From positions 1 through 56,924 of the IMG/VR virus record IMGVR_UViG_3300032895_000004: a stretch of 56,924 nt of DNA; one strand, written 5' to 3'. The notes beneath the pieces are model-generated. The model had not been told where the DNA came from. It saw nothing but the letters and a program-made list of their open reading frames with translations, and searched no databases. The position numbers were made by a program, and so were the translations under genes. Source of the DNA: a virus (taxonomy: Duplodnaviria > Caudoviricetes). Of this stretch, positions 686 through 54,660 are shown piece by piece. Position 1 is the stretch's first letter; every line of letters starts with the position of its first letter.

Positions 686-949
686 GTGACTCTGCGTTGT
701 GAATGTGGGAAGCGGCTGGCGATGCTCCAGGTAAAGGACGGCGGTTACGGTTCAGCCGGTCCCGGAGGCGCATTCGTAGATGGCTTCTGGTATGTCCCGA
801 CACGGCGGGGACAGCCCGTCGTAGCTGACTACTGGCACCAACACACCTCCCGGTGTGGACGCGCTCCCGAGATCCGAGGGGAGCGGCTCGTGGAACTCGT
901 GCGGTCGGCACAAGCGCGGGGCGTCAAGTCGATCACCCTGCCGGATTAG
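686..949 (+). CDS. Small Cys/His (Zn-ribbon-like) hypothetical protein spanning the repeat boundary
   Basis: VTLRCECGKRL...HQHTSRCGR. Intact here, 5'-truncated in the second copy at 53415. Confidence 0.55.
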   Translation: MTLRCECGKRLAMLQVKDGGYGSAGPGGAFVDGFWYVPTRRGQPVVADYWHQHTSRCGRAPEIRGERLVELVRSAQARGVKSITLPD

Positions 950-1044
950 CCGGGCATCAGCACCCGACCGAACGAGTCTGCCAAGTCTCGGTCGCACCAG
1001 ACGACAGGTTGGCCCAAGCCCGAATAGGGGGCCGGACAGCCGGT

Positions 1045-1485
1045 CTAGGCGGCCGCGGCGATCAAAAGTTCCGCAGAGGTTGTCTCTGAGGTGTGACGCC
1101 GGAGGAGATGCTCGCGAGTGTGGGTGGCGAAGCGGTACGTGCACCCCTTCTCCATGCCACCATCCTCGATAAGCCGAGCCAACAACACTCCAACGGTCTC
1201 GTCGGCGCTCAGAACAGCCGGTCCGTGACTCCCGTGATCGCAGTCGCCGGGCACCCGCGACAACGAAACGATCATGAGGGCGTTGGACACAGGAACCACC
1301 AAGTTCGCCACGCCCCCCGACGCTTCGACCTCGGCCAGTGCGTCAGCGATCCGGTCCGAGCGGAGTGCCGGAACCACCGGAATCGACCCGTCGGGCGCGC
1401 GCTTCAGGAGGTCCGTGAACTCCGGCTCGATCATCTTCCGGGCGATCAGCGCGGTAAGACCGCCGCGTTCGCCGTCCTCAGGCAT
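1045..1485 (-). CDS. Hypothetical protein (captured segment)
   Basis: ORF from MPEDGERGG, overlapping the stop of the upstream gene; duplicated at 53648..54088. Confidence 0.55.
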   Translation of the reverse strand: MPEDGERGGLTALIARKMIEPEFTDLLKRAPDGSIPVVPALRSDRIADALAEVEASGGVANLVVPVSNALMIVSLSRVPGDCDHGSHGPAVLSADETVGVLLARLIEDGGMEKGCTYRFATHTREHLLRRHTSETTSAELLIAAAA

Positions 1486-1849
1486 CCTGCCACCTTGTGA
1501 GCTCCGCCGAGAGCTGTGTCTCGGCCAGTGCTTCTGCTGTGCGTGTATATACATCCTCGAGCGATCCGGGAGCAATCGGCCCGACCTGCCTGGGTATACC
1601 CGGGTCTGCGGTACGGCAATGCTCCCTGCGCCAGAGGCTGCCCTCCTCCGACCACATCTCAACGACCTCCCGATAGATAGGACTGCCGGACATCGTCTTG
1701 AGTGCGATGTGAAAGTACACCAATTCTCCCTGTTCACGGGCCATGTGGACATCCAGCCGATGTGCCTCCATCCCCAAGGTGCCCACTTTGAGCCGGAACG
1801 GGTGCAGCTCCGGGCCCTCCCACCCCGGAAGACTCATGGTGTCGCACAC
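1478..1849 (-). CDS. Hypothetical protein (captured segment)
   Basis: 123-aa ORF; duplicated at 54081..54452. Confidence 0.5.
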   Translation of the reverse strand: MCDTMSLPGWEGPELHPFRLKVGTLGMEAHRLDVHMAREQGELVYFHIALKTMSGSPIYREVVEMWSEEGSLWRREHCRTADPGIPRQVGPIAPGSLEDVYTRTAEALAETQLSAELTRWQDA

Positions 1850-1873
1850 TAGTTGACCAGGGAAAACGGCGGC

Positions 1874-2056
1874 CTAATTCGGACATAGAGCCTTCCCGCC
1901 CGGATCACCGTCTGGAAGCCGCGGAGGCTTGGGCAGCCCAGCCAACGTCCTCCCCAGCGAGGCGGCCAGTTCCTGATCGCGCTGCTCGAGGGCGTGCGGG
2001 TACACCCGAAGGGTGATCGACGGGTCGGCATGGCCGAGCCGAGCCCCAACCGTGAC
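1874..2056 (-). pseudogene. Tyrosine recombinase/integrase C-terminal remnant
   Basis: Frame absent from the ORF track reads VTVGARLGHADPSITLRVYPHALEQRDQELAASLGRTL, the box II LGH..S.T...Y motif with the catalytic Tyr. No 5' part is present. Confidence 0.85.
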
Positions 2057-2065
2057 GGCTCGCGC

Positions 2066-2294
2066 TCATGCCATCTGGCCTTCGTCTTCGAGAGGCAGTA
2101 GCTCGTCCCTCAACCTGAATGTGCCGTGACCGCACCACCGACAGGTAGATCCGAACCCGAAGTCGTCGGAGTGGAACTGCATGGCACTCTTGCGCTGGCA
2201 CTCGGGGCAACGGCGAGACTCGGCTGATCGCCTTGCAGCCGTCCGGCTGTTGGCGGTAGCGGTGCGGACGTTCCCGTTCTGAAAAGGTAGCCAT
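2066..2294 (-). pseudogene. Zn-ribbon protein with a 1-nt frameshift
   Basis: ATG GCT ACC TTT[T] CAG AAC: removing one T gives MATFQNGNVRT...RRCPECQRK...CRWCGHG...MA*. Length is 3n+1. Confidence 0.7.
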
Positions 2295-2296
2295 AT

Positions 2297-2854
2297 CTAT
2301 AAGAGTCCCTGAGCGTCCGGACCGTGACAGTCGTCGGGAGATTTCTCGGGAAACTTCTGTGGATTTAGTGCGGCCCGAAGATTGGCTAGCACCTTAGTCC
2401 ACGTCGGACCCCCGTCGCGGGTGTCAGCCCAGTCCACTACGGCTTGACCAACTTTCCGCAGCCGGTCCCGCTCGGCTTGGAGGCCGCTGGCACGGTGCCA
2501 CTGCTCGTTCGCGCTGGTCCTAGCCTCAGTCAACATCTGCTGAAGCGTGACCCTCTCGGATTCGGAGTGAGCGAGATCACCCTTTGTCTGTCGCCACCCC
2601 AACTCGGCCTGGTTCCGCTCGGCCACCAGGGCGTTGAAGGAGCGGTTGAACAACCGAGCGACCATGAGAGCCGTGGCCTGTGTCTCGGCACAGATGACGC
2701 AGTGATCTCCGGCCCAGTTGTTGTCGCAAGAGTGGTCCGAGGCGAGCGACTTCACGAGGTCCTGCTCCTCGCGGATGGCCTGTTCGAGAGCAGCGGTGCG
2801 GACCGCCTCCTCGACCCGTTGCGTAAATGTGGACGATGAAACCGGATCAGGCAT
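2297..2854 (-). CDS. Coiled-coil hypothetical protein with a small Cys/His motif
   Basis: Start MPDPVSS after GGAGG; HSC...HCVIC motif followed by heptad-rich helix. Confidence 0.7.
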   Translation of the reverse strand: MPDPVSSSTFTQRVEEAVRTAALEQAIREEQDLVKSLASDHSCDNNWAGDHCVICAETQATALMVARLFNRSFNALVAERNQAELGWRQTKGDLAHSESERVTLQQMLTEARTSANEQWHRASGLQAERDRLRKVGQAVVDWADTRDGGPTWTKVLANLRAALNPQKFPEKSPDDCHGPDAQGLL

Positions 2855-4130
2855 GGGCCACCTCCGGGTACTCGATCTCGACGAGCCACATGCCGACGCG
2901 CTGCCGGCCGAGCTCGGCGTTGCGCTCGTCCAGGTCGATCCCGATGGCGTCGCGGCCGTGGCCAGTGGCGACGGCGAGAGTGGTCCCTGAACCGGCGAAG
3001 GGGTCAAGCACGACACCGTTACGCCAGGAGTCGTGGCCGCAGTCCGACCATCCGAGGGTCAGGCGCTCTGAGAAATCAGGAGCGTCCGTCGATGAGCCAG
3101 CCCTTGCATGGCGCTGGGGATCTCCGAGCGTTCGGTGCCCGTTGCCAGTGCTGTTGACGTGCTCCACCAGACGCCGGCTGGGTTCGCCACAGACCGTGCA
3201 GACCCGGCGCGGGCACATCGCCTCGATGGGCGTCACGCACAGGTCGGACGGGAAGGCGGCGTAGTGGCTGCCTTTGTAGGGCTCAGTGGGGATCACCCAG
3301 TAGTCGAGGGGTGGCGCTCCGGCTGGATGCGACGGCACTCGGGTCTGGTAGTTCGCCGTCTGGACCTCGACCGGGTCGCCGTGCTTGGGCCCGTTGGTCG
3401 TGCGGAACCGCTGGTCGACTGCCTCGGTGCGGACCGCGTCCATATCGAAATACCGCGTGCGGCTCTTGCAAGCGATCGTCAGATAACTCGTGGCCGGTCG
3501 GAACTTGTCGCTGAGCGCGCCGACAGGAGGGTTCGGGCGGCACCAGGCGACCACGTTGCGGACCCGCCAGCGGTCGGTCTGCCGTCCTGTGAGCGCGTTG
3601 AACCCGTAAGACAGAGCGACGGCGAACAGTTCGGGGACGAGCACCTTGGACTTGTCGAGTGGCCAGCCGTCCCTGTCGGACCGCGTGCGTCCGGGTCCGG
3701 TGCGCTCGCCCGCGCCGGGTTGGTTATACGCCGTGTTCATAGGCTTCGCTCGAGCCGCCCGGGCTTTTGTTGCGCTCCCGTCAAACGTCGGCTGACCGGC
3801 ACGCATCGCCCAGGTCCCGTTGCTCGGGTCGGCCGGGGTGTAGTCCCCACCAGCACCACCGGAACCGCTGTAGGTGTCCCCGAGCTCGACCACGATGGAG
3901 CCGTGCGGAGCCAGCACCCGCTCGAGCGCCTCGATCACGTCAAGCAGGGTGTCGAGATACTCGCCGGGCGTCGGCTCTGACCCGATCTCCTTGGCCTTAT
4001 CCGGGTGGTCCTTGGGCAGGTAGGAGCGCAGAGCCAGGAAGGGCGGTGAGGTCATCACCAGGTCGACCGAGGCGTCTGGCAGCTTCGCCAGTGCATCGAA
4101 CACGTCGCCCACGATGTAGCGGGCGGTCAC
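2847..4130 (-). CDS. Beta-class N4/N6 DNA methyltransferase with Cys-rich insert
   Basis: Motif IV TSPPF near the N-terminus, H.A.FP motif, motif I DPFAGSGTT at the C-terminus; insert CPRRVCTVC...WSDCGH. Confidence 0.93.
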   Translation of the reverse strand: MTARYIVGDVFDALAKLPDASVDLVMTSPPFLALRSYLPKDHPDKAKEIGSEPTPGEYLDTLLDVIEALERVLAPHGSIVVELGDTYSGSGGAGGDYTPADPSNGTWAMRAGQPTFDGSATKARAARAKPMNTAYNQPGAGERTGPGRTRSDRDGWPLDKSKVLVPELFAVALSYGFNALTGRQTDRWRVRNVVAWCRPNPPVGALSDKFRPATSYLTIACKSRTRYFDMDAVRTEAVDQRFRTTNGPKHGDPVEVQTANYQTRVPSHPAGAPPLDYWVIPTEPYKGSHYAAFPSDLCVTPIEAMCPRRVCTVCGEPSRRLVEHVNSTGNGHRTLGDPQRHARAGSSTDAPDFSERLTLGWSDCGHDSWRNGVVLDPFAGSGTTLAVATGHGRDAIGIDLDERNAELGRQRVGMWLVEIEYPEVAHA

Positions 4131-4245
4131 GACGGGCCCTTAGCGGGAGAGTCCATACCCCGGCTGGACACTGGCGCCGAACCTGGGCGAGCGTCCTCGC
4201 GGATAGCCCCCTCTCCCGCAGGAGATTCTACCTGGTCAGGGGCGG

Positions 4246-4389
4246 TTATCGGTCGCGGTAAGGCGCGCACGCCGCCTCCCACTGATCGTCGGTCACGCTG
4301 TCGGGCTCGGCGAGCTCGGCGTCGAGAACAGCCCACAGGCGACGTTCGGCCTCGTCCCGCGGTCTACTGGAAGTGAAAGAAACCGTCAT
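4246..4389 (-). CDS. Small hypothetical protein (47 aa)
   Basis: MTVSFTSSRPRDEAERRLWAVLDAELAE...; ATGA overlap with the upstream gene. Confidence 0.5.
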   Translation of the reverse strand: MTVSFTSSRPRDEAERRLWAVLDAELAEPDSVTDDQWEAACAPYRDR

Positions 4390-5228: not shown

Positions 5229-5397
5229 GACTCGCCTCCAACCGCGCGCGCTCCCTGCGGCTCTCGCCCCTGCGCTGGTCGATGAGCGCGAGCTGCTCGT
5301 CGGCGGACCGAGTGCGGCGCCTCTCTTTGAGCATCAGGGCCTTCTCCTGGCGACGTTCACGCCACTTCGGCCAGTTCTTGCGGAGATGATTACTCAC
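5221..5397 (-). CDS. Small basic helical protein
   Basis: VSNHLRKNW...RSADEQLALIDQRRGESRRERARL; GTGA overlap. Confidence 0.6.
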   Translation of the reverse strand: MSNHLRKNWPKWRERRQEKALMLKERRRTRSADEQLALIDQRRGESRRERARLEASRD

Positions 5398-6098
5398 GAC
5401 GGCCCCACGGTGAAGGAACTGGCCGATGATACCGGCCCGGTGATCGCGCCGGGAATCTGATTGTCCACGTAATAGAGCCCGTATGCGTAGTAGCCGTAGA
5501 GCGGCACCCCATCGGAGCCCTGGGTAAACAGCGGGGCGTTCAGCGACGTGCCGGCATCCGAGATGGTGACGTCGGGGAACGGCGAAGGTGGCGTGCCAAG
5601 GGTGGGGTTGGTCTCCACGATGAACAGCGCCCCGGTGCACGTCGTGTCCGGTACGGCGGCCTTGGCCGACCACGACTTGGCGGTGGTCTCGTTGTCGAAC
5701 ACCACCGTGGCCCCTTGCGTCGAGTAGGTGGGGGCCTGGATGAACACCTCGATGGTTTGGCCCGGTGAGCACAACGTGGGCGGCGCATACTGCGTCTCGC
5801 CGTTGTACTCGTCGGTGGAGTAGTAACAGTCGGCGGCCGGGCCCGAGGCGTCCTCCACGCCGGCCTGCACATAGGTGGCGAAGGTGTCGTCGGTGGACTG
5901 ATAGTCGACCCACGCCGCCACCCCGGGGAAGTCGGGCACCGTGAACGTCGCGTAGACGGTCGACACCGGCCCGCTGTAGGCGGTGTTTGCCGAGTAGCCG
6001 TCGACGTCGTAGGACACGCTGGCTCCCGCGTGCGCGCCGCCGATCAGCGCCATGACGGATACCGCCACGACGGCGACGAGACTTCGGATCACTCTCAT
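5394..6098 (-). CDS. Secreted G1-family (eqolisin-like) glutamic peptidase
   Basis: Signal peptide ending AHA; ordered motifs DGY, ATFTVP, AAWV, VQAGVE (catalytic Gln), PGQTIEV, NETT, ALFIVET (catalytic Glu), FPDVTISDA. Confidence 0.75.
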   Translation of the reverse strand: MRVIRSLVAVVAVSVMALIGGAHAGASVSYDVDGYSANTAYSGPVSTVYATFTVPDFPGVAAWVDYQSTDDTFATYVQAGVEDASGPAADCYYSTDEYNGETQYAPPTLCSPGQTIEVFIQAPTYSTQGATVVFDNETTAKSWSAKAAVPDTTCTGALFIVETNPTLGTPPSPFPDVTISDAGTSLNAPLFTQGSDGVPLYGYYAYGLYYVDNQIPGAITGPVSSASSFTVGPS

Positions 6099-6373: not shown

Positions 6374-6810
6374 TGGTCTCGCTCCCTCCAAGTCGCGCGA
6401 TCGTCTGGACACTCCAACCGCAGGCGCAAACCGCACGCTCGAGCTGTCGGGTACTCCTCGTCGGACAGCGGCACGTACAGGTGGCCGACCATCGACTTGG
6501 GGTTCCACCACCACCACTCGCCGCGCCCGGTGGCTCCCACCCCGACCAGGGCCAGGCGGGCAAACCGCTGGATGGTCACCAGATCGGCCTCACGTGCCCT
6601 GTAGAGGCCGACTTCGTACTTCCGGGGCCTCAGAGCCGTCAGCCACGCAGCGACGTGCCAGGAGCCACCACAGACCCCCTCCACGGTCAGCATGATCCCG
6701 AGTCGCTGGTCTCGTCCGAGCGGGTGAACCTTGGTCCACGGACTGAGCGAGAAGTGATGACGCGGCAACGGGTGGTTGAGCGCGTAGGTGCGTTGTTGCT
6801 CGATCCTCAC
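6364..6810 (-). CDS. Hypothetical protein
   Basis: GTG start after GAGGAGG, coupled to the upstream stop. Confidence 0.65.
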   Translation of the reverse strand: MRIEQQRTYALNHPLPRHHFSLSPWTKVHPLGRDQRLGIMLTVEGVCGGSWHVAAWLTALRPRKYEVGLYRAREADLVTIQRFARLALVGVGATGRGEWWWWNPKSMVGHLYVPLSDEEYPTARACGLRLRLECPDDRATWRERDQWK

Positions 6811-7223
6811 GTCGCCTCCTCGACAAGATCGGGCGGCACCTGGTCGAGGACCTGACACGACCGGGCGAACCGTTTGGTGGCCGAGTCCCAGCCGTACACA
6901 CACGCACGACATTCCCGGATCAGCCACTGACGGAAGCCCGGGTCATCGTCGTCGGGCAGGAAGGCGGTCTGGCGTTCACAGTGTGTGCATGTCGCGCCGT
7001 CGACCACCTTCTCACAGAGATGAAGCAGCGCCATGAGCGGGTCCAGGCCGGCCGCAACCTTCGTGCCCTTCTCGTAGAGCGCCACCGCCAGCCACACGAC
7101 GGGCTCCTCGTCGTGAGAGAACCGAAGTTGAATCGCGCCTGCGCCGGTCCGGCCGAGCATGTCGACAGCGGCGACAACTTGTTCGGCGTGTTCGGGGGGC
7201 ATCCCCTCGGGGCGTGTGATCAT
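6807..7223 (-). CDS. Hypothetical Zn-binding protein
   Basis: CTHC...C..C motifs; GAGGAG RBS. Confidence 0.75.
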   Translation of the reverse strand: MITRPEGMPPEHAEQVVAAVDMLGRTGAGAIQLRFSHDEEPVVWLAVALYEKGTKVAAGLDPLMALLHLCEKVVDGATCTHCERQTAFLPDDDDPGFRQWLIRECRACVYGWDSATKRFARSCQVLDQVPPDLVEEAT

Positions 7224-7262
7224 CGTGGCTCCTCGATCACCCGACGAAGAGCACGCAGCGCG

Positions 7263-7937
7263 TTACCAGCCGCCGCCGCATCCGTCTTGGTCAGGTGGGT
7301 TCGACTCAATAGCTTCTGCCACCACGATCTGCTCGTCAGGCGTCGCGTTCGTCTCGTTGAAAGCCGAGCCGTACGTTGCCCAGTTCTGAACGTCGATGCC
7401 AAGAGAGCCGTAGAACTCGGGTCCTTCGGCATAGGTGGCCCACCCTCCGGGCTCCTCACAATTCGCAACGCGGGTCCACGCCGCGAACTGCGCGCACGTG
7501 ACGCCCGTGCCGTCATCGGGGTCCCAGCCATCACAAGAAGGGTCCGACGTCGGCGTCGAGGTCGTCGGGATCGGGGGGGCGCTCACGGTTCCGCTCGATG
7601 GCGTACTCGGCGAGCGAGGGCTGAGGGGTGGTTCGGATGGTGACGACGGCCCGGAGCGGTTCGTCGCCTGCGACGTCGTAGATCGGTCGCTCAGCAACCC
7701 CCACGAAGTGCATCGAGGTGCCAGCGTGTCGATGCTTGAACATCGCCAGTCCGTGCCATGCGGCCTCCTCAGTAAGAGCCGTGGGGCCGAGCTGGCCGCA
7801 GACACAGACGGCGTTGACCGTGCCGTTGCGGTTGTGCCGGAAGTAGGAGTGCTTGTGTGCAGCACCCCGAGCGTCGTCCCCGCCATCGCCAGCGCGATTG
7901 TCAGTCGAGTGCATGTGATTCTCCATCGTGGTCGCAG
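7263..7937 (-). CDS. Rpf-like (resuscitation-promoting factor) transglycosylase with overprinted N-terminus
   Basis: C-terminal WTRVANCEEPGGW...FYGSLGI...NWATYG...ATPDEQIVVAEAI matches the Rpf fold with its catalytic Glu. Start uncertain: CTG 7937 follows a good RBS and gives a signal-peptide-like N-terminus; ATG 7886 is the alternative. Confidence 0.8.
   Translation of the reverse strand: MRPRWRITCTRLTIALAMAGTTLGVLHTSTPTSGTTATARSTPSVSAASSAPRLLLRRPHGTDWRCSSIDTLAPRCTSWGLLSDRSTTSQATNRSGPSSPSEPPLSPRSPSTPSSGTVSAPPIPTTSTPTSDPSCDGWDPDDGTGVTCAQFAAWTRVANCEEPGGWATYAEGPEFYGSLGIDVQNWATYGSAFNETNATPDEQIVVAEAIESNPPDQDGCGGGW
7531..7914 (-). CDS. Hypothetical protein overlapping the Rpf-like gene in another frame
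   Basis: GGAG-6nt-ATG; strong G/C third-position bias; H/CxC/H motif. Confidence 0.65.
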   Translation of the reverse strand: MHSTDNRAGDGGDDARGAAHKHSYFRHNRNGTVNAVCVCGQLGPTALTEEAAWHGLAMFKHRHAGTSMHFVGVAERPIYDVAGDEPLRAVVTIRTTPQPSLAEYAIERNRERPPDPDDLDADVGPFL

Positions 7938-8290
7938 CCTTCTCTCCCTTGCTCGGCGGGTCCGACACCCGCTTTGTTGGTTAGGTGATCCACTACCGAC
8001 AACAAGCCTTGCAGGTTGGTGATCGCGACGCGTAGAGCCTCGTTGCGTTCACGAGCCTCGTCCGGGTCTCTCTGAACGCCATCCAACGCGATGACCATCG
8101 CGAACGACAACAAGGCGCGTTCGGCTTCGGACACCACGTCGGTCTCGAAAGGCTCTTCGATCACTTCGAGAATGGAGATCATCAATTCTCCACACGCCCC
8201 AATGGCAGCGGCGGGCGAACGGGCCACAAGCTCCATGCACATCTGTCGAGCCCGAGTGACGTCCTCGTTGAAAGTAGAGGGAAGAATCAC
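7901..8290 (-). CDS. Hypothetical helical protein
   Basis: 129-aa ORF, GTGA-coupled. Confidence 0.65.
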   Translation of the reverse strand: MILPSTFNEDVTRARQMCMELVARSPAAAIGACGELMISILEVIEEPFETDVVSEAERALLSFAMVIALDGVQRDPDEARERNEALRVAITNLQGLLSVVDHLTNKAGVGPAEQGREGCDHDGESHALD

Positions 8291-8634
8291 GCCACCCGTC
8301 CGATCCGACGACGAGCCATCTTGCTCGGCGCAGGGATCGAGGGGTGACGACGCAGGTACTCGCGCCGCATCAGATCACGCCTCGCGTCCTCTCGCGACAT
8401 GCCCCACCCCTCGGGGTGTTCATAGGCCCGGTACAGCAACTGGCCGGTGGCCGTCGACCACACTTCGGCACGCTTACACGTGCAGACGGTGCACCGCAGC
8501 AGGATGCGCTTGCAGGCCACCACGAACACGGCGCGACGTGAGAGTGGCGCGCCGTCATCGGGCACTTCATCCCATGAATGGCCGAACGTCCGACAGTGAA
8601 CGTAAGCCTCGGGTTGCTTGCTTCTCGTTGGCAT
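8287..8634 (-). CDS. Zn-ribbon hypothetical phage protein
   Basis: CRTFGHSW...RCTVCTC...Y.HPEG; strong RBS. Confidence 0.75.
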   Translation of the reverse strand: MPTRSKQPEAYVHCRTFGHSWDEVPDDGAPLSRRAVFVVACKRILLRCTVCTCKRAEVWSTATGQLLYRAYEHPEGWGMSREDARRDLMRREYLRRHPSIPAPSKMARRRIGRVA

Positions 8635-8637
8635 GTA

Positions 8638-8655
8638 TCTCTCCCTTGTGAGTTG
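8638..8655 (-). promoter_or_regulatory. 18-bp start-associated motif CAACTCACAAGGGAGAGA, copy 1
   Basis: Exact copy at 15080..15097; both lie directly upstream of a start codon and include the RBS. Confidence 0.7.
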
Positions 8656-8726
8656 GTGCCGACTGCACCGGGAGACCACGGCCGTTCTCGCGCCGTCCGT
8701 GGCTCCCCGCTGTTGTCAGCAGCGAG

Positions 8727-8828
8727 TCATCGTGTTCGTTCGGAATGCGCGGCTACGACCTCCGTCCACCAGCACCACGCGCCGACGAGGACGAAGCTCG
8801 CGAGGCACAGGTCAAGCAGAAGTCTCAT
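8727..8828 (-). CDS. Small membrane protein (33 aa)
   Basis: MRLLLDLCLASFVLVGAWCWW...; GAGGAGG RBS. Confidence 0.55.
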   Translation of the reverse strand: MRLLLDLCLASFVLVGAWCWWTEVVAAHSERTR

Positions 8829-9010
8829 CGTGTCTCACCTCCTCTCACACAATGTCTACAGGGTCTGACACTCGGGGATCAGTCTTTTCTCAGACGTGTC
8901 TAGGATCGTCTCTCCCGTCACCGCCTGACGCGCGAGACGAAGGGGACAGAGACGTCATCCGGACGGCTCACGGGCGATTCTAGAAATGTCTCAGACCGAT
9001 GCTCGTGGAA

Positions 9011-10042
9011 TTACGAAGCCACGACTTCGCGGGCCAACGTCAGAGCACGAGCCTTCGCCGCCTGCGGACGAAGCAACTGACGACCCATGTAGGTCTGCGT
9101 GTTCCGGTAACCCCGAAGGTGATCCAGGTACTCGCCAGCCGCCTGCACGAGCCCGTACGCATTGTCTTTGATCGGCTCGACGGTCGGTGTGCCGAACAGA
9201 CCGAACATCGCCGTGCGAGCCAGCTCGACGTTGCGCACCACGCGTTCACTCACGACGCCTTCAGGCGGCATCGGGATGAACTCATTGACGAACATCTGCC
9301 GATGCTTGGCGGTGACTCTGATCTTGGTCAGTTCGTTACAGATTTCCAACCACCGCGCTGTCTCGTCGCGCACGCCGTGAATCGCCTGCTTGGCCTCCTC
9401 GATCCGATCACGCCAGTTTTTGGTGTGCGCGAACGAATACGCCACGCCCTCTCTCTCCCCGAGAGCTTCGGAGGCTCCGTAGGTGTTGGCACACACCACT
9501 CGAACGTTGGTCGGCAACACCTTGCACCGACCGTGTCCGTCGTGACGATTGAGCACCACGAAGTAGGGATAACTCTGCGACGTGTCACCGCGCACCAGGA
9601 ACGGCTCGTCCAGATAGGCGCACACATAGGTCATGCGACCCTCGTCCAGACACCCGGCTGTATCCCACTGAGCCTTTTGATCGAGCAACGCCTCCACGAT
9701 CCCGCCCATCTCGGAGTTGTCGATCAGCGAATAGGACTCATTGGTGACGGCCAGCGTGACGTTCGTGTCCGATCGAACGATCCGCTTCCACCCCTCGATT
9801 TCCTGAATCTCGGCCGTCGTACGTTGCCGTCTGTCGGCGTCGTCGCCTTTGCCAGATCGAACGGTCTGAACTCTGATCGTCCGATCGTCCACGGCATAGA
9901 CGGGCTTCTCGATCGGGTCCCACGCCAGACCGGCCAACTCGCGCGCCTCGTCCCAACTGCCGGGGTAGTCGGGCACAAGCGTTTCGAGTTGGTGCCAGCT
10001 CGGTGTGCGAACACAAAAGCCGGACTCAAATAGATGACTCAT
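9011..10042 (-). CDS. DUF932 family phage/plasmid protein
   Basis: WH.L, TAGCL.EGR, LNRHDG, TNVRVVCANT, HTKN, NAYGLVQA..EYLDH motifs; AAGGAG RBS. Confidence 0.88.
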   Translation of the reverse strand: MSHLFESGFCVRTPSWHQLETLVPDYPGSWDEARELAGLAWDPIEKPVYAVDDRTIRVQTVRSGKGDDADRRQRTTAEIQEIEGWKRIVRSDTNVTLAVTNESYSLIDNSEMGGIVEALLDQKAQWDTAGCLDEGRMTYVCAYLDEPFLVRGDTSQSYPYFVVLNRHDGHGRCKVLPTNVRVVCANTYGASEALGEREGVAYSFAHTKNWRDRIEEAKQAIHGVRDETARWLEICNELTKIRVTAKHRQMFVNEFIPMPPEGVVSERVVRNVELARTAMFGLFGTPTVEPIKDNAYGLVQAAGEYLDHLRGYRNTQTYMGRQLLRPQAAKARALTLAREVVAS

Positions 10043-15079: not shown

Positions 15080-15097
15080 TCTCTCCCTTGTGAGTTG
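15080..15097 (-). promoter_or_regulatory. 18-bp start-associated motif, copy 2
   Basis: Identical to 8638..8655. Confidence 0.7.
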
Positions 15098-26407: not shown

Positions 26408-28900
26408 CTACGGGCTATTGACTTGGCGCAACGAGACCGTCGTGTCCTGAATGGGGTGCTGGCCGGTCTCATATTGGAACTCGACCTCGGGCGAACCGAT
26501 CACGGTCACATACCATTGACCACCGAGCGGTGACTGCAAAAGAAGTGCCCCGGTCTGAGTGAGCAAAGCTTCGAGGGCGTTCTGGTCGGTCAGGTTGCCA
26601 GTACGGAACACCAGCCCCCAATCCACGCCCTTGAAACCATCGGTCAGCTTCACGCCCAGCGGGCGACCTTGCGGATCGAACTCGGTGTCGACCTGGCGCA
26701 GGGTCTTGCTCGGGTTACCGTTCAGATCGAGCGCCACGCCACTGCCTTGCACGAGTGGGTTCGACAGGCCCCACTTCGGATAGACCGTCGACTGCGTCGA
26801 CACGGTATTGCTCCACGGCGAGTACACGGTCGTGCCCTGATAAGGCGCGACGACTCGGACTCGATAGACCATCGTGGTGAGAGGAACGGACTCGGTGTCA
26901 TAGCAGGATGCGGTCTGCGCAGCGGACTCCAGCACCAGCGCGCCGAACCGAAGGTCGTTCCACGTGGCGCCGCCGTCCTGGGAGACCTGGAATTCCATCG
27001 ACGCCACACCGACGTTGCCACCCAGGGTCCACTCCGTCGCCACGCCGGGGAACAGGCCCCACTGGTCGGCGAAATGTTCCTCGTTGGCCGCGCACCCGCT
27101 GATCGTCACGACGAGCGCCGCATACGCTGCGCCCGAAGGCGCGGTGGCCTGTCCTGAGAGCACGGTGTTGGCACTTGCCGAGTCGTTAGCGGTGTCGATC
27201 GTGGTGGTCGACAGCAGAGTGCCCGCTGAGTTGTACCAGGAGACCCCCAGAGTGGCGCTACGAGCCACGGAGGCGGCGCGCAGCACGACCCATACGGTCA
27301 GCTCCTCCCCGCCGCTTACAGGGCATCCTGAGAGGCCGCCCGACCACTGCGCGCTGATGGCCCCGCTGGCGGTGGCCTTCAGTTGCAAGGAGTACGAGCC
27401 GTCCGAGGCCCAGGTGGTCACCGCCGAAATGGCCGTGTTGGAGCCCGCACTGAAGCCAGTGGTGGTGCCGAGCTCGACCGACGACTGGTTGGCCGTGCCG
27501 AGGTTGTCCGCTCCGGTCGCGGTGAGCAACACGGCGGGCAACTGGGTGCCGGGGTAGTCCACGACGGAGCCCACCAGGCTCGGCTGAGCGGGCGAGTCGT
27601 AGTTGACCGAGAACGACGAATACTCCCAGGGGGAGGTCTCGCCATTGGATTGCGTGACTTGAACGTATGCACGGAAGCTGGTCGCGTTTGCCAACGCGAG
27701 CCCGACCATCGCGCTGGCCGCGGAACCGGCCTCGACCCCGGAGTCCCACGTCGATGGCGAGACGCCCGGGGTGAACCCACCGGCCCCGTACTGCGCGGCG
27801 CTGTAGATCACCACTCGCCACGCGGTGAGCGACTGACCGGAGGCGGGAGAGGGGGACCACACCACCGTCGGTTCAGGAGTGATCACCGACCCGCTCGGCG
27901 ACGTGACACTGAGAGTCGGTCCGAGGCTCGTGGTGAACTGACTGAAGGCGGCGAACGGGCCGTCGTCACCGGCCGAGGACTCTTGGGTCGCCAGTGCCCA
28001 CGAGATGGTGTGACCGTTCGCGAAGAGGTTGGCGGGGAGAGCGACGGTAAAGGTGGCGCCGGGCGCAGCGGCCAACGTGTTCCACACCGCCCCGCTCTGC
28101 AACGCTTGCGTGGTGGCGTTGAAGTACTGAACGGCACCCGAGTCGACTTTGACCTGAAGCGCGTACGCATGCATCGACGCCCCGTTGGTGGGGTTGTAGC
28201 TCGCTTCGAGGTCGATGATCTGCGTGGCATCTGCCGCCGAGCCCGACGTCGGTGAGGTCTGCGTGGGCGCCAGAGGCGCGATTGGGACCTCGTAGAGTGC
28301 GACGGTGATCTGTCCCTCGCCGCCCGCCGTCCCGGAGCCGGCCCACTGAATGTTCCCCGTCGAGCCCTCTGACGCCACGACGAGGTCGGCGACGTAGGTG
28401 CTGCAATAGGTCACATAGTTGACGGCGACGCGCTCGGTCCAACCCCCGGAGGGGACACCCGTAACCGGAGTGCCCCCGCCGCCGTAGGCCCCAATCAAGA
28501 TCGAGACCACCGTGTCGTTCGTATAGCTAGTGGTCACCGCTGGCGTGACGATTCCACTACTGATGCCGCCGACGTTCGCCGCGTCGATGGCGATGCCCCC
28601 GCCGGTCGCGCGATAGCCAAAGGCGTTGAGCACGTAGGAGGCGACGCCCGCTTCGCCGAAGCCGAACGTCAGTTCACCGGCCGAGAGATCAGCAGTGGTC
28701 AGAATCTTGCAAAGGCACGCCTGATCAGTCGCACCGATCGCCAACACGGTCCACCCCGAAGGCACCGAAAGGATGGAGCCGTTGGTGGCACAGGTGAGGA
28801 ACACCAGGTCGCCTTGTTGAGAGCCCGAAGGAATCTCGATCGACCCGCTGGCGCCCTCGCCTTCGACCGGCGTTTGCGCGGCGGTAAAGGCCAAGCTCAT
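26408..28900 (-). CDS. Large minor tail protein with Ig/FN3-like and carbohydrate-binding-like domains
   Basis: Beta-rich S/T/G composition; CBM-like DGSYSL...VSWY.SAG..LS...TAPSGAAYA; C-terminal distal-tail-like LLLQSP.G..WYV. Confidence 0.75.
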   Translation of the reverse strand: MSLAFTAAQTPVEGEGASGSIEIPSGSQQGDLVFLTCATNGSILSVPSGWTVLAIGATDQACLCKILTTADLSAGELTFGFGEAGVASYVLNAFGYRATGGGIAIDAANVGGISSGIVTPAVTTSYTNDTVVSILIGAYGGGGTPVTGVPSGGWTERVAVNYVTYCSTYVADLVVASEGSTGNIQWAGSGTAGGEGQITVALYEVPIAPLAPTQTSPTSGSAADATQIIDLEASYNPTNGASMHAYALQVKVDSGAVQYFNATTQALQSGAVWNTLAAAPGATFTVALPANLFANGHTISWALATQESSAGDDGPFAAFSQFTTSLGPTLSVTSPSGSVITPEPTVVWSPSPASGQSLTAWRVVIYSAAQYGAGGFTPGVSPSTWDSGVEAGSAASAMVGLALANATSFRAYVQVTQSNGETSPWEYSSFSVNYDSPAQPSLVGSVVDYPGTQLPAVLLTATGADNLGTANQSSVELGTTTGFSAGSNTAISAVTTWASDGSYSLQLKATASGAISAQWSGGLSGCPVSGGEELTVWVVLRAASVARSATLGVSWYNSAGTLLSTTTIDTANDSASANTVLSGQATAPSGAAYAALVVTISGCAANEEHFADQWGLFPGVATEWTLGGNVGVASMEFQVSQDGGATWNDLRFGALVLESAAQTASCYDTESVPLTTMVYRVRVVAPYQGTTVYSPWSNTVSTQSTVYPKWGLSNPLVQGSGVALDLNGNPSKTLRQVDTEFDPQGRPLGVKLTDGFKGVDWGLVFRTGNLTDQNALEALLTQTGALLLQSPLGGQWYVTVIGSPEVEFQYETGQHPIQDTTVSLRQVNSP

Positions 28901-31752
28901 CCCGACACCCCACCACGGATGGGCGACTGTCCCGTCTTGATCTGTTGGGTCAGCGCGGTGAGCCCTTGCTTCGCCGCCATCGACGCCTGACTGGCCGTCG
29001 CGCTGTCACCGACCTGGATCACCACGGCACCCGGCGCGACGGTGACCACCGAGGACTGCACGGTGGTAGTGCTCGACGCACCGAGCGACCCGATCCCGGC
29101 CAGTCCTCCCGGCCCTGGGCCGGTCTGCGTAGTCGGCATCGAGAGCCCGGCCGAGGTCAAAATTTCCACGATGCGCGCTCGGTTGTTCAGAGGCAGCACA
29201 ACCTCGGGCCCTGCTTCACCAACAAGCGCCAGAGTCGGCTTCGTGATCAGGCCGCCCTCGGCCAGGAGGCCGAAGGTGACGGTCGACAGCACGGACTTGC
29301 CCGCGTTCAGAATCCCGCCGATCGCCCCCGCCACTTTGGAGGCCACCGACTCGATGTCATCGAGCGCATCCTTGATCGCGTCAAAAATGGTTTTGACCCC
29401 GTCCCACGCGGTGGAGAGCACGGTCTTGATCCCGGACCAGACGTAACTCCACACGGTGCCCAGCGTGGACAGGGCGCCTTTTATCCCGTCGGTGATCCCG
29501 CTGCTGATGTCGTGGAACACGCCCGAGACAGCTCCCCACACGGTGCTGAGAACCGAAGACGCCCCGTTCCACACCGCGCTCCACACCGCCTTGAACCCGT
29601 TGACCACGGCGGTCAGAGTCCCGGTGATGAAGCCGGTGACGTCATCGAACACGGACTTGATCCCGTCCCACGCGGTCGAGATGACCGAGTGCAGAGCGTT
29701 GCCGAAAGCGGTCCAGTTCCCGGTGACCAGCGCGATGAACGCGTCGATGATCCCCTTGATCACGCCGATCACGGTGGCGACGATGGTGGAGATCAGGTCC
29801 CAGGCCGTCTTGAACACGCCGGTGATGACGTTCCACGCGGTCGTGAAGATGGCCTCGACCACTCCCCATGCTTCGGTCACGTTGTCGACCACGACGGCGA
29901 CCCCGTCCTTCACCACCCCACCGATCACGGACCACACGGCCTGGAAGGCCGCGTCGAGAACAGCCCATATCTGCTGCCAGTGCAGCGCGAACTCGATCAC
30001 CGCCGCCAGCACGATCCCGATGGGACCGAGGAAGGCCAGGAGCACGATGCCGAGCGTGCCGAACCCCGAGCGAAGATCGTTGACCGCGTCATCGAACCAG
30101 TGCTTTATGTCGGACCACACCTGTTGCCAGTGAGTCGCCAGGTAGTCGATCCCGGCCGCGAGCGCGGCGACCGCCAGAATGATGCCGCCGATGATCGGGA
30201 CCACCACGGACATGCTGGCGATCCAGAACCCGATGGCCGTGACCAGGATGCCGCCGATCACGGCTGCCAACGCGATCAGCAGCTCCTTGTGCTGCATGAC
30301 GTAGTTCCCCGCCTTCACCAGCCAGTCGAGGAAGGTCCGGATGGCGGGCAGCAGAACGCTGCCCAGCTTCGTCGCGTAGTCCTCGACGGTGGCCTTCAGC
30401 ATGTCGAACTGATGATCGAGAGTCTGCGCCTGCTTCTCGGCCGCCTCGTGCGCCGCGTTGGTCTTGTTGACCGAATCGATGTACTTCTGCAACACGGCCG
30501 GGCCGGCCTGGATGGTCTCGGCCAGTTTCTGCGATGCGGAACCGAACCCCAGAGTCTTGAGCGTCGCCGCCGCCTCGGCCGTCCCCATCCCGGCGAGGAC
30601 GGGTTGCAGCTCCGCGAAGATCGTGGTGAGGGGGAGCAGTTGGCCCTTCGCATTGAGGAAGGACACGTTCGCCGCCTGCTGCGCCGCGGTCACCGCAGCG
30701 GTCGGAGCGATGATCCCCGAGAAGGCGGACCCCAGCGCCGAGATGGCCCCACGGCCGGTCTCGCCGTGATTGGTGATGTCGACCAGCAAGCCGGCCAGCG
30801 CCGACAACGGTGGCGCTGCTGCGCCCATCTGCGTGCGGGCCCGCTGCAACGAGGAGGTCACCTGATCGAGCCCGACCCCGGTCTGACGTGACGCCTCGAA
30901 CAAGATGTCGCTGGTCGTGGCGGCGGCCGACAGCGGAAGCTGGTACGCCTGCATGATCTTCGCCAGATCGGACGTCGCGTTGGCGAGTGAGACCTGGGAC
31001 GCCTCGGCCAGATCGGAGGCCGTTTTCATAATCAGCGTCGAGTTCGCCGCGTCGAGTTGGTGACCCGCGATCTCCTCGAACACGGCGGCCACCGGGGACA
31101 GGGCCTCAATCATCGTGTTCCCACTGAAGATTGAGGTCCCCGCGGTGTCGAGGAGCGCGTTACCGATCCCTTGTGCCTTGGCGATGGAGATATCGGCGTT
31201 GGCCGACAGCGACGTGGTCGCGGTCTGGAAGTCCATGCCCAGCTTGATCGAGGCGGCCGCGAAGCCGAGGACCGCGACGGTGGTCCCGATCGCGATGACC
31301 TTGCCCAGCGCGCCCATCTTCCCGGCGAACCCATCGGTGGCCGTGCCGGCCGTGCCCATCTTCCCGGTGATGTTGTCGAGGGTGGAGTTCCCGGTGGAGT
31401 TGAGATTGACCAGGCCGCCGGTCAGGAATGAGAGCGCGGAGCCGAGGGAGTCCATGAGCCCCCCGCCCCCCTTCTCGGCGCTCTTGGCGATGTCGTCGCC
31501 GACGTTCTTTCCCGCGGTGTCCAGATCACCCAGCGCGAGAGCTCCGGCCCCAGCCGCGTCGGAGATGTCGCTCGCAATCCCGTCGGCTCCGTCCTTCACC
31601 CCGGCGCGCATTCCAGCGCCCGCCGCTGCCCCACTGGCAGTTGCGTCGGCCTCGAGCCCGGTGAAGGCCTCGGCGGTCTGACCCTGCAAGTCCTCCTCGA
31701 ACTGCGAGCCGTCAGCGGTGACGAGGATCGAGGCCTCGCCGATGACGTTCAC
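28897..31752 (-). CDS. Tape measure protein
   Basis: 951-aa Ala/Gly-rich helical protein with periodic W/F repeats and a C-terminal LAEGG...PTLALVGEAGPEVVLPL. Confidence 0.93.
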   Translation of the reverse strand: MNVIGEASILVTADGSQFEEDLQGQTAEAFTGLEADATASGAAAGAGMRAGVKDGADGIASDISDAAGAGALALGDLDTAGKNVGDDIAKSAEKGGGGLMDSLGSALSFLTGGLVNLNSTGNSTLDNITGKMGTAGTATDGFAGKMGALGKVIAIGTTVAVLGFAAASIKLGMDFQTATTSLSANADISIAKAQGIGNALLDTAGTSIFSGNTMIEALSPVAAVFEEIAGHQLDAANSTLIMKTASDLAEASQVSLANATSDLAKIMQAYQLPLSAAATTSDILFEASRQTGVGLDQVTSSLQRARTQMGAAAPPLSALAGLLVDITNHGETGRGAISALGSAFSGIIAPTAAVTAAQQAANVSFLNAKGQLLPLTTIFAELQPVLAGMGTAEAAATLKTLGFGSASQKLAETIQAGPAVLQKYIDSVNKTNAAHEAAEKQAQTLDHQFDMLKATVEDYATKLGSVLLPAIRTFLDWLVKAGNYVMQHKELLIALAAVIGGILVTAIGFWIASMSVVVPIIGGIILAVAALAAGIDYLATHWQQVWSDIKHWFDDAVNDLRSGFGTLGIVLLAFLGPIGIVLAAVIEFALHWQQIWAVLDAAFQAVWSVIGGVVKDGVAVVVDNVTEAWGVVEAIFTTAWNVITGVFKTAWDLISTIVATVIGVIKGIIDAFIALVTGNWTAFGNALHSVISTAWDGIKSVFDDVTGFITGTLTAVVNGFKAVWSAVWNGASSVLSTVWGAVSGVFHDISSGITDGIKGALSTLGTVWSYVWSGIKTVLSTAWDGVKTIFDAIKDALDDIESVASKVAGAIGGILNAGKSVLSTVTFGLLAEGGLITKPTLALVGEAGPEVVLPLNNRARIVEILTSAGLSMPTTQTGPGPGGLAGIGSLGASSTTTVQSSVVTVAPGAVVIQVGDSATASQASMAAKQGLTALTQQIKTGQSPIRGGVSG

Positions 31753-44122: not shown

Positions 44123-44418
44123 GAGTCCTCCTCGTCCGGGGCGTCGGTCCCCTCGGTGAACAGCACGGTGAAGTCGCAGGTGCAGCCGTCATGGTCGCCG
44201 GGTGCGAAGTACTCCACCTCGGGCCAGCCGTAGGTGTTCTGAAGCTGCTCGTCGTCCCACTCTGTGAACTGCACGCCGTCGAGGTCAGCGTGGGGCTCGA
44301 AGGCGTGAAGTGGATCGCCATGCACCCATTGGTACGAGACCACGTCAGCGTTCGCGTCGGACAGAAGGTCGGACACGATGGGCCCGGTGCCGATCTGACC
44401 CAACAGGTCGTCAGCCAT
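44119..44418 (-). CDS. MuF-like minor head domain (separate ORF after the portal)
   Basis: YQWVHG....FEPH..LDG..F..WDD...PGDHDGCTCD; ATG overlaps the portal stop (GATGGCTGA). Confidence 0.7.
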   Translation of the reverse strand: MADDLLGQIGTGPIVSDLLSDANADVVSYQWVHGDPLHAFEPHADLDGVQFTEWDDEQLQNTYGWPEVEYFAPGDHDGCTCDFTVLFTEGTDAPDEEDS

Positions 44419-46783: not shown

Positions 46784-47049
46784 CAGGTGTGCTCGGTCAG
46801 GAACCCAGCGACGGCCGACAACGCCAGCACGTAGCACCCCCACCGCACGATGCTCCACTCGAAGTGTGTCAGGGCGAGCAGGACGACGCCGAGCCACACA
46901 GAGCAACACCAGGGGCACTCAGCCCAATCACGCAGCTTGCCCCCGAGACGCTGGCGGATGGGCTCAGTGAGCAGGTCCCGACCGATGAACCACGCCAGGC
47001 GATAGATGCACAGCGCCACGATCAAGGCGTTGAGCGCCGTCCACCTCAC
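46783..47049 (-). CDS. DUF1360-like membrane protein
   Basis: YRL..FI..D..TEP.R......CPWC.SVW. Confidence 0.82.
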   Translation of the reverse strand: MRWTALNALIVALCIYRLAWFIGRDLLTEPIRQRLGGKLRDWAECPWCCSVWLGVVLLALTHFEWSIVRWGCYVLALSAVAGFLTEHT

Positions 47050-53416: not shown

Positions 53417-54660
53417 GCCCGTCGTAGCTGACTACTGGCACCAACACACCTCCCGGTGTGGACGCGCTCCCGAGATCCGAGGGGAGCGGCTCGTGGAACT
53501 CGTGCGGTCGGCACAAGCGCGGGGCGTCAAGTCGATCACCCTGCCGGATTAGCCGGGCATCAGCACCCGACCGAACGAGTCTGCCAAGTCTCGGTCGCAC
53601 CAGACGACAGGTTGGCCCAAGCCCGAATAGGGGGCCGGACAGCCGGTCTAGGCGGCCGCGGCGATCAAAAGTTCCGCAGAGGTTGTCTCTGAGGTGTGAC
53701 GCCGGAGGAGATGCTCGCGAGTGTGGGTGGCGAAGCGGTACGTGCACCCCTTCTCCATGCCACCATCCTCGATAAGCCGAGCCAACAACACTCCAACGGT
53801 CTCGTCGGCGCTCAGAACAGCCGGTCCGTGACTCCCGTGATCGCAGTCGCCGGGCACCCGCGACAACGAAACGATCATGAGGGCGTTGGACACAGGAACC
53901 ACCAAGTTCGCCACGCCCCCCGACGCTTCGACCTCGGCCAGTGCGTCAGCGATCCGGTCCGAGCGGAGTGCCGGAACCACCGGAATCGACCCGTCGGGCG
54001 CGCGCTTCAGGAGGTCCGTGAACTCCGGCTCGATCATCTTCCGGGCGATCAGCGCGGTAAGACCGCCGCGTTCGCCGTCCTCAGGCATCCTGCCACCTTG
54101 TGAGCTCCGCCGAGAGCTGTGTCTCGGCCAGTGCTTCTGCTGTGCGTGTATATACATCCTCGAGCGATCCGGGAGCAATCGGCCCGACCTGCCTGGGTAT
54201 ACCCGGGTCTGCGGTACGGCAATGCTCCCTGCGCCAGAGGCTGCCCTCCTCCGACCACATCTCAACGACCTCCCGATAGATAGGACTGCCGGACATCGTC
54301 TTGAGTGCGATGTGAAAGTACACCAATTCTCCCTGTTCACGGGCCATGTGGACATCCAGCCGATGTGCCTCCATCCCCAAGGTGCCCACTTTGAGCCGGA
54401 ACGGGTGCAGCTCCGGGCCCTCCCACCCCGGAAGACTCATGGTGTCGCACACTAGTTGACCAGGGAAAACGGCGGCCTAATTCGGACATAGAGCCTTCCC
54501 GCCCGGATCACCGTCTGGAAGCCGCGGAGGCTTGGGCAGCCCAGCCAACGTCCTCCCCAGCGAGGCGGCCAGTTCCTGATCGCGCTGCTCGAGGGCGTGC
54601 GGGTACACCCGAAGGGTGATCGACGGGTCGGCATGGCCGAGCCGAGCCCCAACCGTGACG
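53417..54660. other. Captured foreign segment (1244 bp; also at 814..2057)
   Basis: Bounded by GC on both sides. Both ends truncate genes: the integrase 3' fragment and the plus-strand Zn-ribbon gene. Confidence 0.78.
54477..54659 (-). pseudogene. Tyrosine integrase C-terminal remnant (copy 2)
   Basis: Duplicate of 1874..2056. Confidence 0.85.

Follow-up and report, generated by a model that had tools for sequence, protein, structure and literature searches.

The most economical reading of positions 7937..7263 on the minus strand of the IMG/VR virus record IMGVR_UViG_3300032895_000004 is a single gene of 224 codons that begins at or near a CTG and would specify a membrane-anchored or secreted muramidase of the Rpf (resuscitation-promoting factor) type. 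This reading, to which a probability of about 0.5 is assigned, is preferred because the match of the N-terminus to those of relatives, the rank of that N-terminus in a hidden Markov model (HMM) search, the codon score, and the unbroken linker together point to one unit. The wider proposition of an exported Rpf-like enzyme initiated at the CTG, which includes the variant in which the same DNA encodes a second protein, is plausible, at odds ranging from even to comfortably better than even. The use of the CTG, export, enzymatic activity, and a benefit to the phage are inferred. The window referred to below is the whole virus record of 56,924 bp, which has 65.5% GC and an estimated completeness of 77%. 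The parts of the proposed gene are as follows.

7263..7937, minus strand: proposed full Rpf-like gene, 224 codons and the stop TAA at 7263-7265, with anchor, linker, and catalytic domain.
7941..7950, minus strand: motif AAGGGAGAGA, containing a Shine-Dalgarno (SD) sequence, 3 nt upstream of CTG 7937.
7935..7937, minus strand: proposed non-canonical start CTG, aligned with the ATG or GTG of relatives (MRTQ.. in locus L053, GTG-RPRW.. in locus L034).
7857..7934, minus strand: putative N-terminal signal or membrane anchor, residues 2-27, Arg-rich RPRWRITCTR followed by the hydrophobic core LTIALAMAGTTLGVL.
7536..7856, minus strand: linker, residues 28-134, two Ser/Thr/Pro-rich stretches around a middle that is not rich in these residues, in the region overlapped by the open reading frame (ORF) 7914..7531.
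7266..7535, minus strand: catalytic region, comprising an extension with Cys135 and Cys148 (CDGWDPDDGTGVTC) and the Rpf domain with Cys160-Glu161-Glu162 and the C-terminal NPPDQDGCGGGW.

An initial annotation made from the sequence alone had placed an Rpf domain at ~7263-7490, and the PF06737 profile bears this out, matching residues 151-211 of the 224-residue frame with an E-value of 7.7e-8 and 33.3 bits (curated cut-off 27). The record as a whole, scanned in six frames, gives its sole PF06737 match at 7302-7490(-), with 34.6 bits, and the PHROG 29757 'transglycosylase' profile also matches the Rpf-like protein (E 2.5e-5). A phmmer search of the PDB returned eight Rpf sequences, from RpfE, RpfC, and RpfB of M. 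tuberculosis, at E-values of 1.1e-5 to 2.7e-3, and aligned the Cys-Glu catalytic motif with the CES of RpfE and RpfC. C160-E161-E162 is invariant in the 6- and 19-sequence alignments, the bridging cysteine pair C160 and C220 is present, and the window retains every column that is invariant among five relatives (25/25). In the AlphaFold2 (AF2) model built from the 19-sequence alignment, residues 135-224 have predicted local distance difference test (pLDDT) values of 82-94. The top 11 among the Foldseek matches listed against the PDB are all RpfE, RpfB, or RpfC chains, with template modeling (TM) scores by target of 0.26-0.67; the single-domain Rpf chains reach TM scores by target of 0.58-0.67 with root mean square deviations of ~2-2.7 Å, and their E-values are only 0.04-0.16 because most of the query is disordered. 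Rpf-type enzymes cleave glycan strands and stimulate the growth and resuscitation of actinobacteria.

Searches with the domain recovered relatives in two viral contigs, 15 proteins, 66 metagenome loci, and eight loci in species-representative genomes. The best genome matches, at 56-57% identity, are to metagenome-assembled genomes (MAGs) of Acidimicrobiaceae and Acidimicrobiales, and the others are to an Actinomycetota MAG and to Saccharimonadales MAGs; the Rpf-like gene looks host-derived, with its nearest chromosomal relatives in Acidimicrobiia MAGs. The family is uniform in layout: the start codon is followed by an Arg-rich stretch, in many cases M/V-R-x-R, and a hydrophobic core, after which a linker, frequently rich in Thr, Pro, and Ser, leads to a domain ending in NPPDQxGCxxxW. 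A canonical start and an Arg-rich N-terminus, together with the hydrophobic anchor, the Ser/Thr/Pro linker, and the domain, are seen in most of the ~56 distinct relatives. The closest subgroup (proteins P0004 and P0007 and locus L008) has the extension 'DGTGV(T/S)CAQF' in common with the window, and its members combine an Arg/Trp-rich N-terminus with a transmembrane-like segment and a Ser/Thr/Pro linker of ~60-90 residues. Cys135 and Cys148 (residues 135-148, 7494-7535) lie upstream of the Pfam domain; both are found in the window, P0004, and P0007, and neither in P0006 or L008, a co-variation that fits an extra disulfide and hence suggests an extracytoplasmic protein.

Read from the CTG, the Rpf frame begins (M)RPRWRITCTRLTIALAMAGTTLGVLHTSTPTSG... 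and resembles the N-termini of these relatives from its first residue. In Smith-Waterman alignments of its first 45 residues with the N-termini of the relatives, the best score, 50, is to L053, end to end from residue 1 (MRPRWRITCTRLTIALAMAGTTLGV with MRTQRRSALSRIVITVLFIATTIGV), and the alignment with L034, which starts GTG-RPRW-STIIVELAVVV, scores 44 and places GTG-RPRW against CTG-RPRW. A score of 50 is attained by 0/156 off-frame nulls, which are 45-mers without stops, taken from real genes of this phage in the +1 frame, and by 1/1000 shuffles of the query; the sum of the top five scores is attained by no null and no shuffle. With an HMM of the relatives' N-termini, the window peptide ranks 3rd of 1174 six-frame peptides, and AF2 places a helix at residues 5-17 with low pLDDT. 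An anchor-like N-terminus that matches relatives is thus present in the frame and might serve export; this segment would be translated only if initiation occurs at CTG 7937.

The Rpf frame is stop-free from 8048 to 7263 (261 codons) and, as the initial annotation had stated for 7531..7914, stays open through all of the ORF 7531..7914/7926, which is referred to below as gene X. Ahead of the domain the Rpf frame contains no ATG, GTG, or TTG codon other than ATG 7886 and GTG 7584-7586, with none between the stop at ~8049 and ATG 7886. Duplex energies were computed with a generic anti-SD sequence and are referred to 35 confident gene starts of this phage, whose median is -7.3 kcal/mol. On this scale neither canonical codon has the ribosome-binding support that had been reported missing: the duplex at GTG 7586 is -5.5 kcal/mol with a spacer of 2, and ATG 7886 was rejected as a start since it has no SD (-1.5 kcal/mol) and would halve the anchor. 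The duplex at CTG 7937 is -9.4 kcal/mol with a spacer of 5, beyond the upper quartile of the 35 gene starts, and just 4.3% of random positions attain -9 kcal/mol. Sliding codon scores in the Rpf frame are strongly negative upstream of ~7950; they climb only from ~7940-7920 and are ~0 at 7920. The motif AAGGGAGAGA has three exact copies in the window, the other two being 3 nt before ATG 8634 (8638-8647) and 7 nt before ATG ~15072 (15080-15089), so that the spacing at CTG 7937 is indeed the same as at ATG 8634, 3 nt in each case.

A longer sequence of 18 nt, CAACTCACAAGGGAGAGA, is found at 8638-8655 and 15080-15097 (-), 3 and 7 nt ahead of those two ATG starts, and only its last 11 nt recur ahead of CTG 7937. 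It looks like a start-associated motif common to a few early genes.

Candidate start codons that depart from the canonical set are found elsewhere in the family. The domain motif is contained in 60 of the 66 metagenome loci, which give 47 distinct N-termini; in 43/47 an in-frame canonical start precedes the hydrophobic core by at most 30 codons, one is at a contig edge, and three (L037, L064, and L056) have no canonical start before the core. Among the genome loci 6/8 are canonical, the exceptions being L071 and L078. Altogether the anchor is not preceded by a canonical start in ~6 of ~56 distinct N-termini, far above the expectation for ordinary genes, and the non-canonical 5' ends of some of these relatives may be assembly errors. 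L056 (596-) reads TGA-CCG-CTG-RRW... and has its anchor with no preceding in-frame ATG, GTG, or TTG, while L040 (2201-) reads TGA-ACA-CTG-SRVPRW... and has a TTG only within the hydrophobic core. In L078 (1165-) the strong SD AAGGAGAGG is followed after 6 nt by ATT; L071 (1198-) has ATC or CTG as candidate start or, alternatively, an SD with an ATG 1 nt out of frame (an ATGA offset); and L037 (2413-) and L064 (895-) have an SD and a GTG in another frame, whose MTRQ.. is like the MRTQ.. of L053. The 'NTGA' overlaps in L040, L056, L071, and L078 were considered as a shared frameshift signal and dropped, since three of the four bases that can precede any TGA give a start codon. It is a tentative and rather doubtful suggestion that the clade of Acidimicrobiia, Saccharimonadia, and phage Rpf proteins repeatedly uses weak non-canonical starts behind strong SDs, with a translated orphan gene born from the linker in the present case; such weak starts may keep a potentially self-lytic enzyme at trace level.

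The same comparisons bear on the possibility that an ancestral GTG or ATG at 7937 has mutated to CTG, so that the gene would be silent or nearly so and at the start of decay, with gene X as a shadow. The CTG is one base from the GTG of L034 at the aligned position, and the 5' ends of other relatives are disrupted, as in L037 and L064 with their SD and GTG in another frame and in L071 with its ATGA offset. However, there is no stop across the 224 codons, the 25 invariant columns are all retained, the SD is intact, and L056 and L040 have a CTG at the equivalent place. Loss of the start codon is accordingly given a low probability.

A Ser/Thr/Pro linker had initially been noted in the overlap with gene X, and its composition agrees with that description, Ser, Thr, and Pro making up 58% of residues 28-134, although unevenly (68% in residues 28-52, 34% in 53-90, and 73% in 91-134). 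The linker has AF2 pLDDT values of 46-63 and no secondary structure. The overlapping ORF is as follows.

7531..7926, minus strand: ORF 'gene X', read in frame -1 relative to the Rpf gene, start ATG 7926 or 7914, stop TGA at 7531-7533.

Gene X has a GGAG 5-6 nt ahead of ATG 7914 (duplex -6.8 kcal/mol), GC contents by codon position of.71/.48/.79, and a codon log-odds score of +0.40 bits per codon, against -0.35 for the Rpf frame over the overlap. The ribosome-binding site and normal codon bias that the initial annotation ascribed to this ORF are thus observed; they do not amount to evidence of a gene, since the -1 frame of the linker yields the same. The codon bias is explicable because the GC-rich second position of the ACN, CCN, TCN, and GCN codons of the linker becomes the third position of the -1 frame. 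The signal and linker segment has a stop-free -1 frame in 11/17 canonical relatives, and in ~7/17 the -1 frame scores equal to or above the true frame in the same codon test. An ORF of at least 100 codons in the -1 frame, with a canonical start and an overlap of at least 200 nt with the signal and linker segment, is present in 12/25 canonical relatives; in 4/12 of these the shadow ORF starts no more than 7 nt from the true start and shares its SD, and some have strong SDs. With these controls, in which the -1 frame of a Ser/Thr/Pro linker passes for a gene, third-position GC content and codon log-odds were rejected as evidence for gene X.

Resampling of codons with the Rpf protein held fixed leaves the gene X frame open in 23% of trials (12% by codon permutation), and resampling with the gene X protein held fixed leaves the Rpf frame open with P = 0.053 (0.26 by permutation of codon order); for comparison, of 4246 stretches of 134 codons taken in the +1 frame from real genes of this phage, 104 (2.4%) are open. 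The histidine content of gene X is 6.9%, against 1.5% in the phage proteome, a by-product expected from ACN and CCN codons read one base early, and stretches such as HKHSYFRHNRNG are TSTPTSGTTATA read in this way. Searches for homologues found only gene X itself among 29 word-sharing candidates in 5.8 billion proteins and only itself in a full phmmer pass over 1.84 billion representative proteins, and the best tblastn match among 76 related loci has an E-value of 0.14. Gene X and its two flanking genes have no relatives in the viral contig collection. Structure prediction gives a pLDDT of 38 in single-sequence AF2 and 0.45 in Atlas, with a best feature score of 0.85 that falls under the bar, a result that is uninformative and not negative. 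Gene X is most likely a shadow of the linker and not a second gene.

Several observations weigh against a single CTG-initiated gene. The Rpf frame has no canonical start for the full-length product, and CTG, whose use here is a proposal, is a poor initiator where this has been measured; in E. coli, initiation at CUG runs at 1-2% of that at AUG (bioRxiv 10.1101/063800). The motif AAGGGAGAGA could also serve ATG 7926, 14 nt downstream (-8.8 kcal/mol, spacer 10). The public gene call consists of GTG 7586 (P0005, 107 residues) and ATG 7914 (P0003, 127 residues), which overlap by 56 nt. Over 7934-7587 the Rpf frame scores -0.44 and the gene X frame +0.39 bits per codon, a gap that exceeds those of all 17 controls. 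In a likelihood test that set a leave-one-out 'linker' codon model of the relatives in the Rpf frame against the phage gene model in the -1 frame, 25 positive controls gave +0.12 to +0.82 bits per codon and 61 negative controls, 130-codon chunks of real genes, gave at most -0.11; the overlap in the window gives -0.08, under all 25 positive and over all 61 negative controls. By sub-region the values are +0.14 for 7934-7791, -0.24 for 7790-7692, -0.23 for 7691-7587, and +0.81 after 7586. Residues 53-90 (RLLLRRPHGTDWRCSSIDTLAPRCTSWGLL; RLLLRRPHGTDWRCSS..) resemble off-frame sequence and not linker, and over this middle part of the overlap the gene X frame reads like ordinary protein. The N-terminal HMM score is not significant when taken alone (5.5 bits, E ~1.5). 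Finally, no close relative of this phage region was found in searches of deposited phages and viral contigs.

Part of this evidence would be accommodated by true overprinting, in which the CTG-initiated Rpf-like protein and an orphan of 127-131 residues are both made from ~390 nt of dual-coding DNA, the new gene having arisen within a tolerant disordered linker. Both frames are open, ATG 7914 has its GGAG at a spacer of 5 and typical codon scores follow it, the middle of the overlap is more protein-like in the gene X frame, the chance of an open Rpf frame given the gene X protein is low as stated above, and a likelihood between the highest negative and the lowest positive control is what mixed constraint would produce. 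Nevertheless, gene X lacks homologues in both protein sets and among the related loci, its models have low confidence, its histidine content is a by-product, and comparable ORFs with starts occur in nearly half of the canonical relatives. Moreover, the likelihood controls use codon models from other genomes, so that the intermediate value may reflect either mixed constraint or calibration, that is, an atypical linker scored with such models. The claim of ~380 bp of dual-coding DNA is not upheld in the form in which it was first made, and overprinting is regarded as rather unlikely.

The other explanation suggested by these scores is that the public annotation is right, with gene X real and the Rpf protein started within the linker at the following codon.

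7584..7586, minus strand: GTG, the start picked by the public gene caller; P0005, a 107-residue product with no export signal.

This codon is the internal GTG that the initial annotation had mentioned near 7587; it exists, and its position is corrected to 7586. The Rpf protein would then be freed only at lysis or would act in a lysis pathway facing the cytoplasm, and the signal-like sequence upstream would be a relic. It is the gene caller's own choice (P0003 and P0005), the coding signal in the Rpf frame is clearly positive only from ~7590 (+0.81 after 7586 and -0.23 before), and P0006, a relative of 97 residues, is likewise called from within its linker with no signal. Yet the SD of GTG 7586 is weak with a spacer of 2 nt; the Ser/Thr/Pro linker of residues 91-134 runs unbroken across this codon, and the product would open with 17 linker residues; the family is exported and the domain has paired cysteines; the region upstream outscores all 61 negative controls; and this upstream part has an SD, a stop-free frame, and a significant match of its N-terminus, a combination unlikely to arise by chance. 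Initiation at GTG 7586 with a real gene X is considered improbable. The probable CTG start and signal-like N-terminus put forward initially are plausible to the extent that the N-termini align from the CTG and its SD is strong.

A frameshift would offer another route from a canonical start to the Rpf domain, and the sequence that might allow it lies just after GTG 7586.

7573..7579, minus strand: C7 homopolymer, candidate site of a +1 slip or an indel, just after GTG 7586.

Translation would start at ATG 7926 or 7914 and shift by +1 either before the anchor or at the C7 run, the latter giving a fusion of gene X and Rpf; alternatively, the C7 run would contain a sequencing indel. CCC_C is a known +1-prone context, the coding signal leaves the gene X frame and enters that of Rpf near 7590, at the C7 run, and canonical starts supported by an SD exist only in the gene X frame. 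On the other hand, an independently built Logan contig (9,563 nt, word depth 11), probably from the same sample, is identical over 6800-8700 with 0 gaps, and the C7 run is not an assembler artefact. A fusion would lose the family's export signal, both ATGs lie downstream of the point at which the N-terminal match begins, and no slippery motif is found near them. A frameshift or indel is very improbable.

If the single CTG-initiated gene is correct, initiation at CTG 7937 would be aided by the strong SD in AAGGGAGAGA 3 nt upstream, and the CTG would keep output low, as would suit an enzyme that cuts the wall of the cell that makes it and is active at very low dose. The Arg-rich N-terminus and hydrophobic anchor (residues 1-27) would insert the Rpf-like glycosidase in the membrane, and the flexible linker of ~107 residues, disordered and largely Ser/Thr/Pro, would let the small glycosidase domain reach the peptidoglycan. 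The linker would be followed by the small Cys-bridged extension and then by the Rpf catalytic domain with its Cys-Glu motif. Peptidoglycan of the infected or a neighboring cell might in this way be loosened or remodeled, and growth-arrested hosts made productive; alternatively, the phage Rpf might soften the wall ahead of lysis. Rpf enzymes govern the exit of actinobacteria from dormancy, and the function first proposed for the phage protein, to wake dormant hosts, is inference only. A signal-anchor-release (SAR) endolysin, which would have a weakly hydrophobic anchor joined directly to the catalytic domain and a gene in the lysis cassette, was considered and rejected: the Gly/Ala/Thr-rich anchor is separated from the domain by the 107-residue linker, the tail and peptidase block is ~13 kb away and the neighbors are small non-structural genes, and chromosomal relatives have the same architecture.

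The domain family is well known, and what is unusual is the proposed CTG start and the mis-annotation that would result from it. The Rpfs of Actinomycetota (RpfE, RpfC, and RpfB of M. tuberculosis and Rpf of Micrococcus luteus; PF06737) have the same domain as judged by HMM, PDB search, and modeled fold, and share with the window the Cys-Glu motif and the bridging Cys pair; their N-terminal export signal or anchor has a putative counterpart in the window, where a low-complexity linker follows it. The window protein differs in being only ~30-35% identical to Rpf chains in the PDB, in having CEE instead of CES, and in its C-terminal NPPDQxGCxxxW signature and additional Cys-bridged DGTGV extension; its gene is phage-borne with no canonical start, and the nearest chromosomal members of the subfamily are in Acidimicrobiia and Saccharimonadales MAGs. 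Stand-alone exported Rpf-like genes occur on at least two other uncultivated viral contigs; L002 and L003, both from IMG/VR, encode small proteins of 132 and ~155 residues with a signal, a short linker, and an Rpf-like domain 47-50% identical to that of the window; these differ in their ATG starts, short linkers, and gene neighborhoods. A tblastn search of 50,697 deposited phage genomes with the 107-residue product gave no match.

Piuri and Hatfull are said to have described, in 2006, Rpf-like motifs inside the tape measure proteins of mycobacteriophages. Those motifs are likewise a phage use of an Rpf-type muralytic motif; however, the mycobacteriophage motif is part of a virion protein and acts at infection, whereas the window encodes a free, predicted exported protein in a non-structural block. 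The tape measure protein of the present phage has 951 residues, and its gene, at 28897-31752, is separate from the Rpf-like gene. Non-AUG initiation in bacteria (at CUG, AUU, and AUC) involves a near-cognate codon at optimal distance from a strong SD, as in the window, with the difference that bacterial CUG initiation was measured in E. coli and the use of the CTG here is a proposal made from the sequence. A literature search found no paper describing a phage-encoded stand-alone (free) Rpf. Host rpf genes are induced during infection by phage WC1 (PMC10986025), and a conference note (PMC12908700) has host Rpfs modulating phage infectivity.

A phage-borne exported Rpf, if real, would be a concrete example of a virus that intervenes in the dormancy or wall growth of its host, beyond the use of such a motif in the tail. 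There is also a practical warning, because with a CTG start gene callers split the gene, drop its export signal, and annotate the linker shadow as an orphan gene, and such shadow ORFs are common in the Rpf-like family, occurring in 12 of the 25 relatives compared. Should CTG initiation prove true, the locus would be a simple system in which to test how high-GC bacteria and their phages throttle the expression of lytic enzymes.

The record is that of a tailed phage, with terminase, two portal-like proteins, a major head protein, and tail proteins at 24-50 kb (-), and the host is probably a high-GC actinobacterium. The Rpf-like gene, on the minus strand, is inside a block of small non-structural genes at 2.8-17 kb that also includes a DNA methyltransferase and a ParB-like protein, and it is ~13 kb away from the tail and peptidase block. 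A blastn search with distant settings found no DNA relatives of the phage region among deposited phages. For sequencing runs that contain the locus, no RNA run is listed and there is a single DNA run (X1), probably the source sample. A scan of 6700-9100 gave 0 promoter-like sites and two plus-strand terminator-like sites, which is the background level. The gene immediately upstream is as follows.

7901..8290, minus strand: 129-residue gene of unknown function, whose 3' end overlaps the CTG start by 37 nt.

This gene has no match in Pfam or PHROG. The next one upstream, at 8287-8634 (-), encodes a Cys-rich protein of 115 residues that matches phrog_4480, of unknown function, with an E-value of 1.7e-6, and it shares the SD motif of the Rpf gene. 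On the downstream side, two genes away from the Rpf-like one, a 234-residue protein encoded at 5394-6098 (-) has a clear signal peptide, MRVIRSLVAVVAVSVMALIGGAHA, and matches Peptidase A4 (PF01828) with an E-value of 4.2e-7 and 30.1 bits against 22.3; as a second exported hydrolase, this protein is unusual phage cargo.

An exact direct repeat of ~3.5 kb occupies 901-4321 and 53504-56924, at an offset of 52,603, and extends to the right end of the record; to the left of ~800 identity drops to chance. The repeat may reflect a circular or permuted genome of ~52.6 kb whose sequence wraps around, or it may be an artefact of assembly, and owing to it the ORF of the 427-residue DNA methyltransferase is present twice, at 2847-4130 and 55450-56733. 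The adjacent large genes at 41954-44122 and 44411-46918 (-) both match portal-type PHROGs, 859 and 776, and the former, which also matches the head maturation protease family, may be portal-like or a protease fusion.

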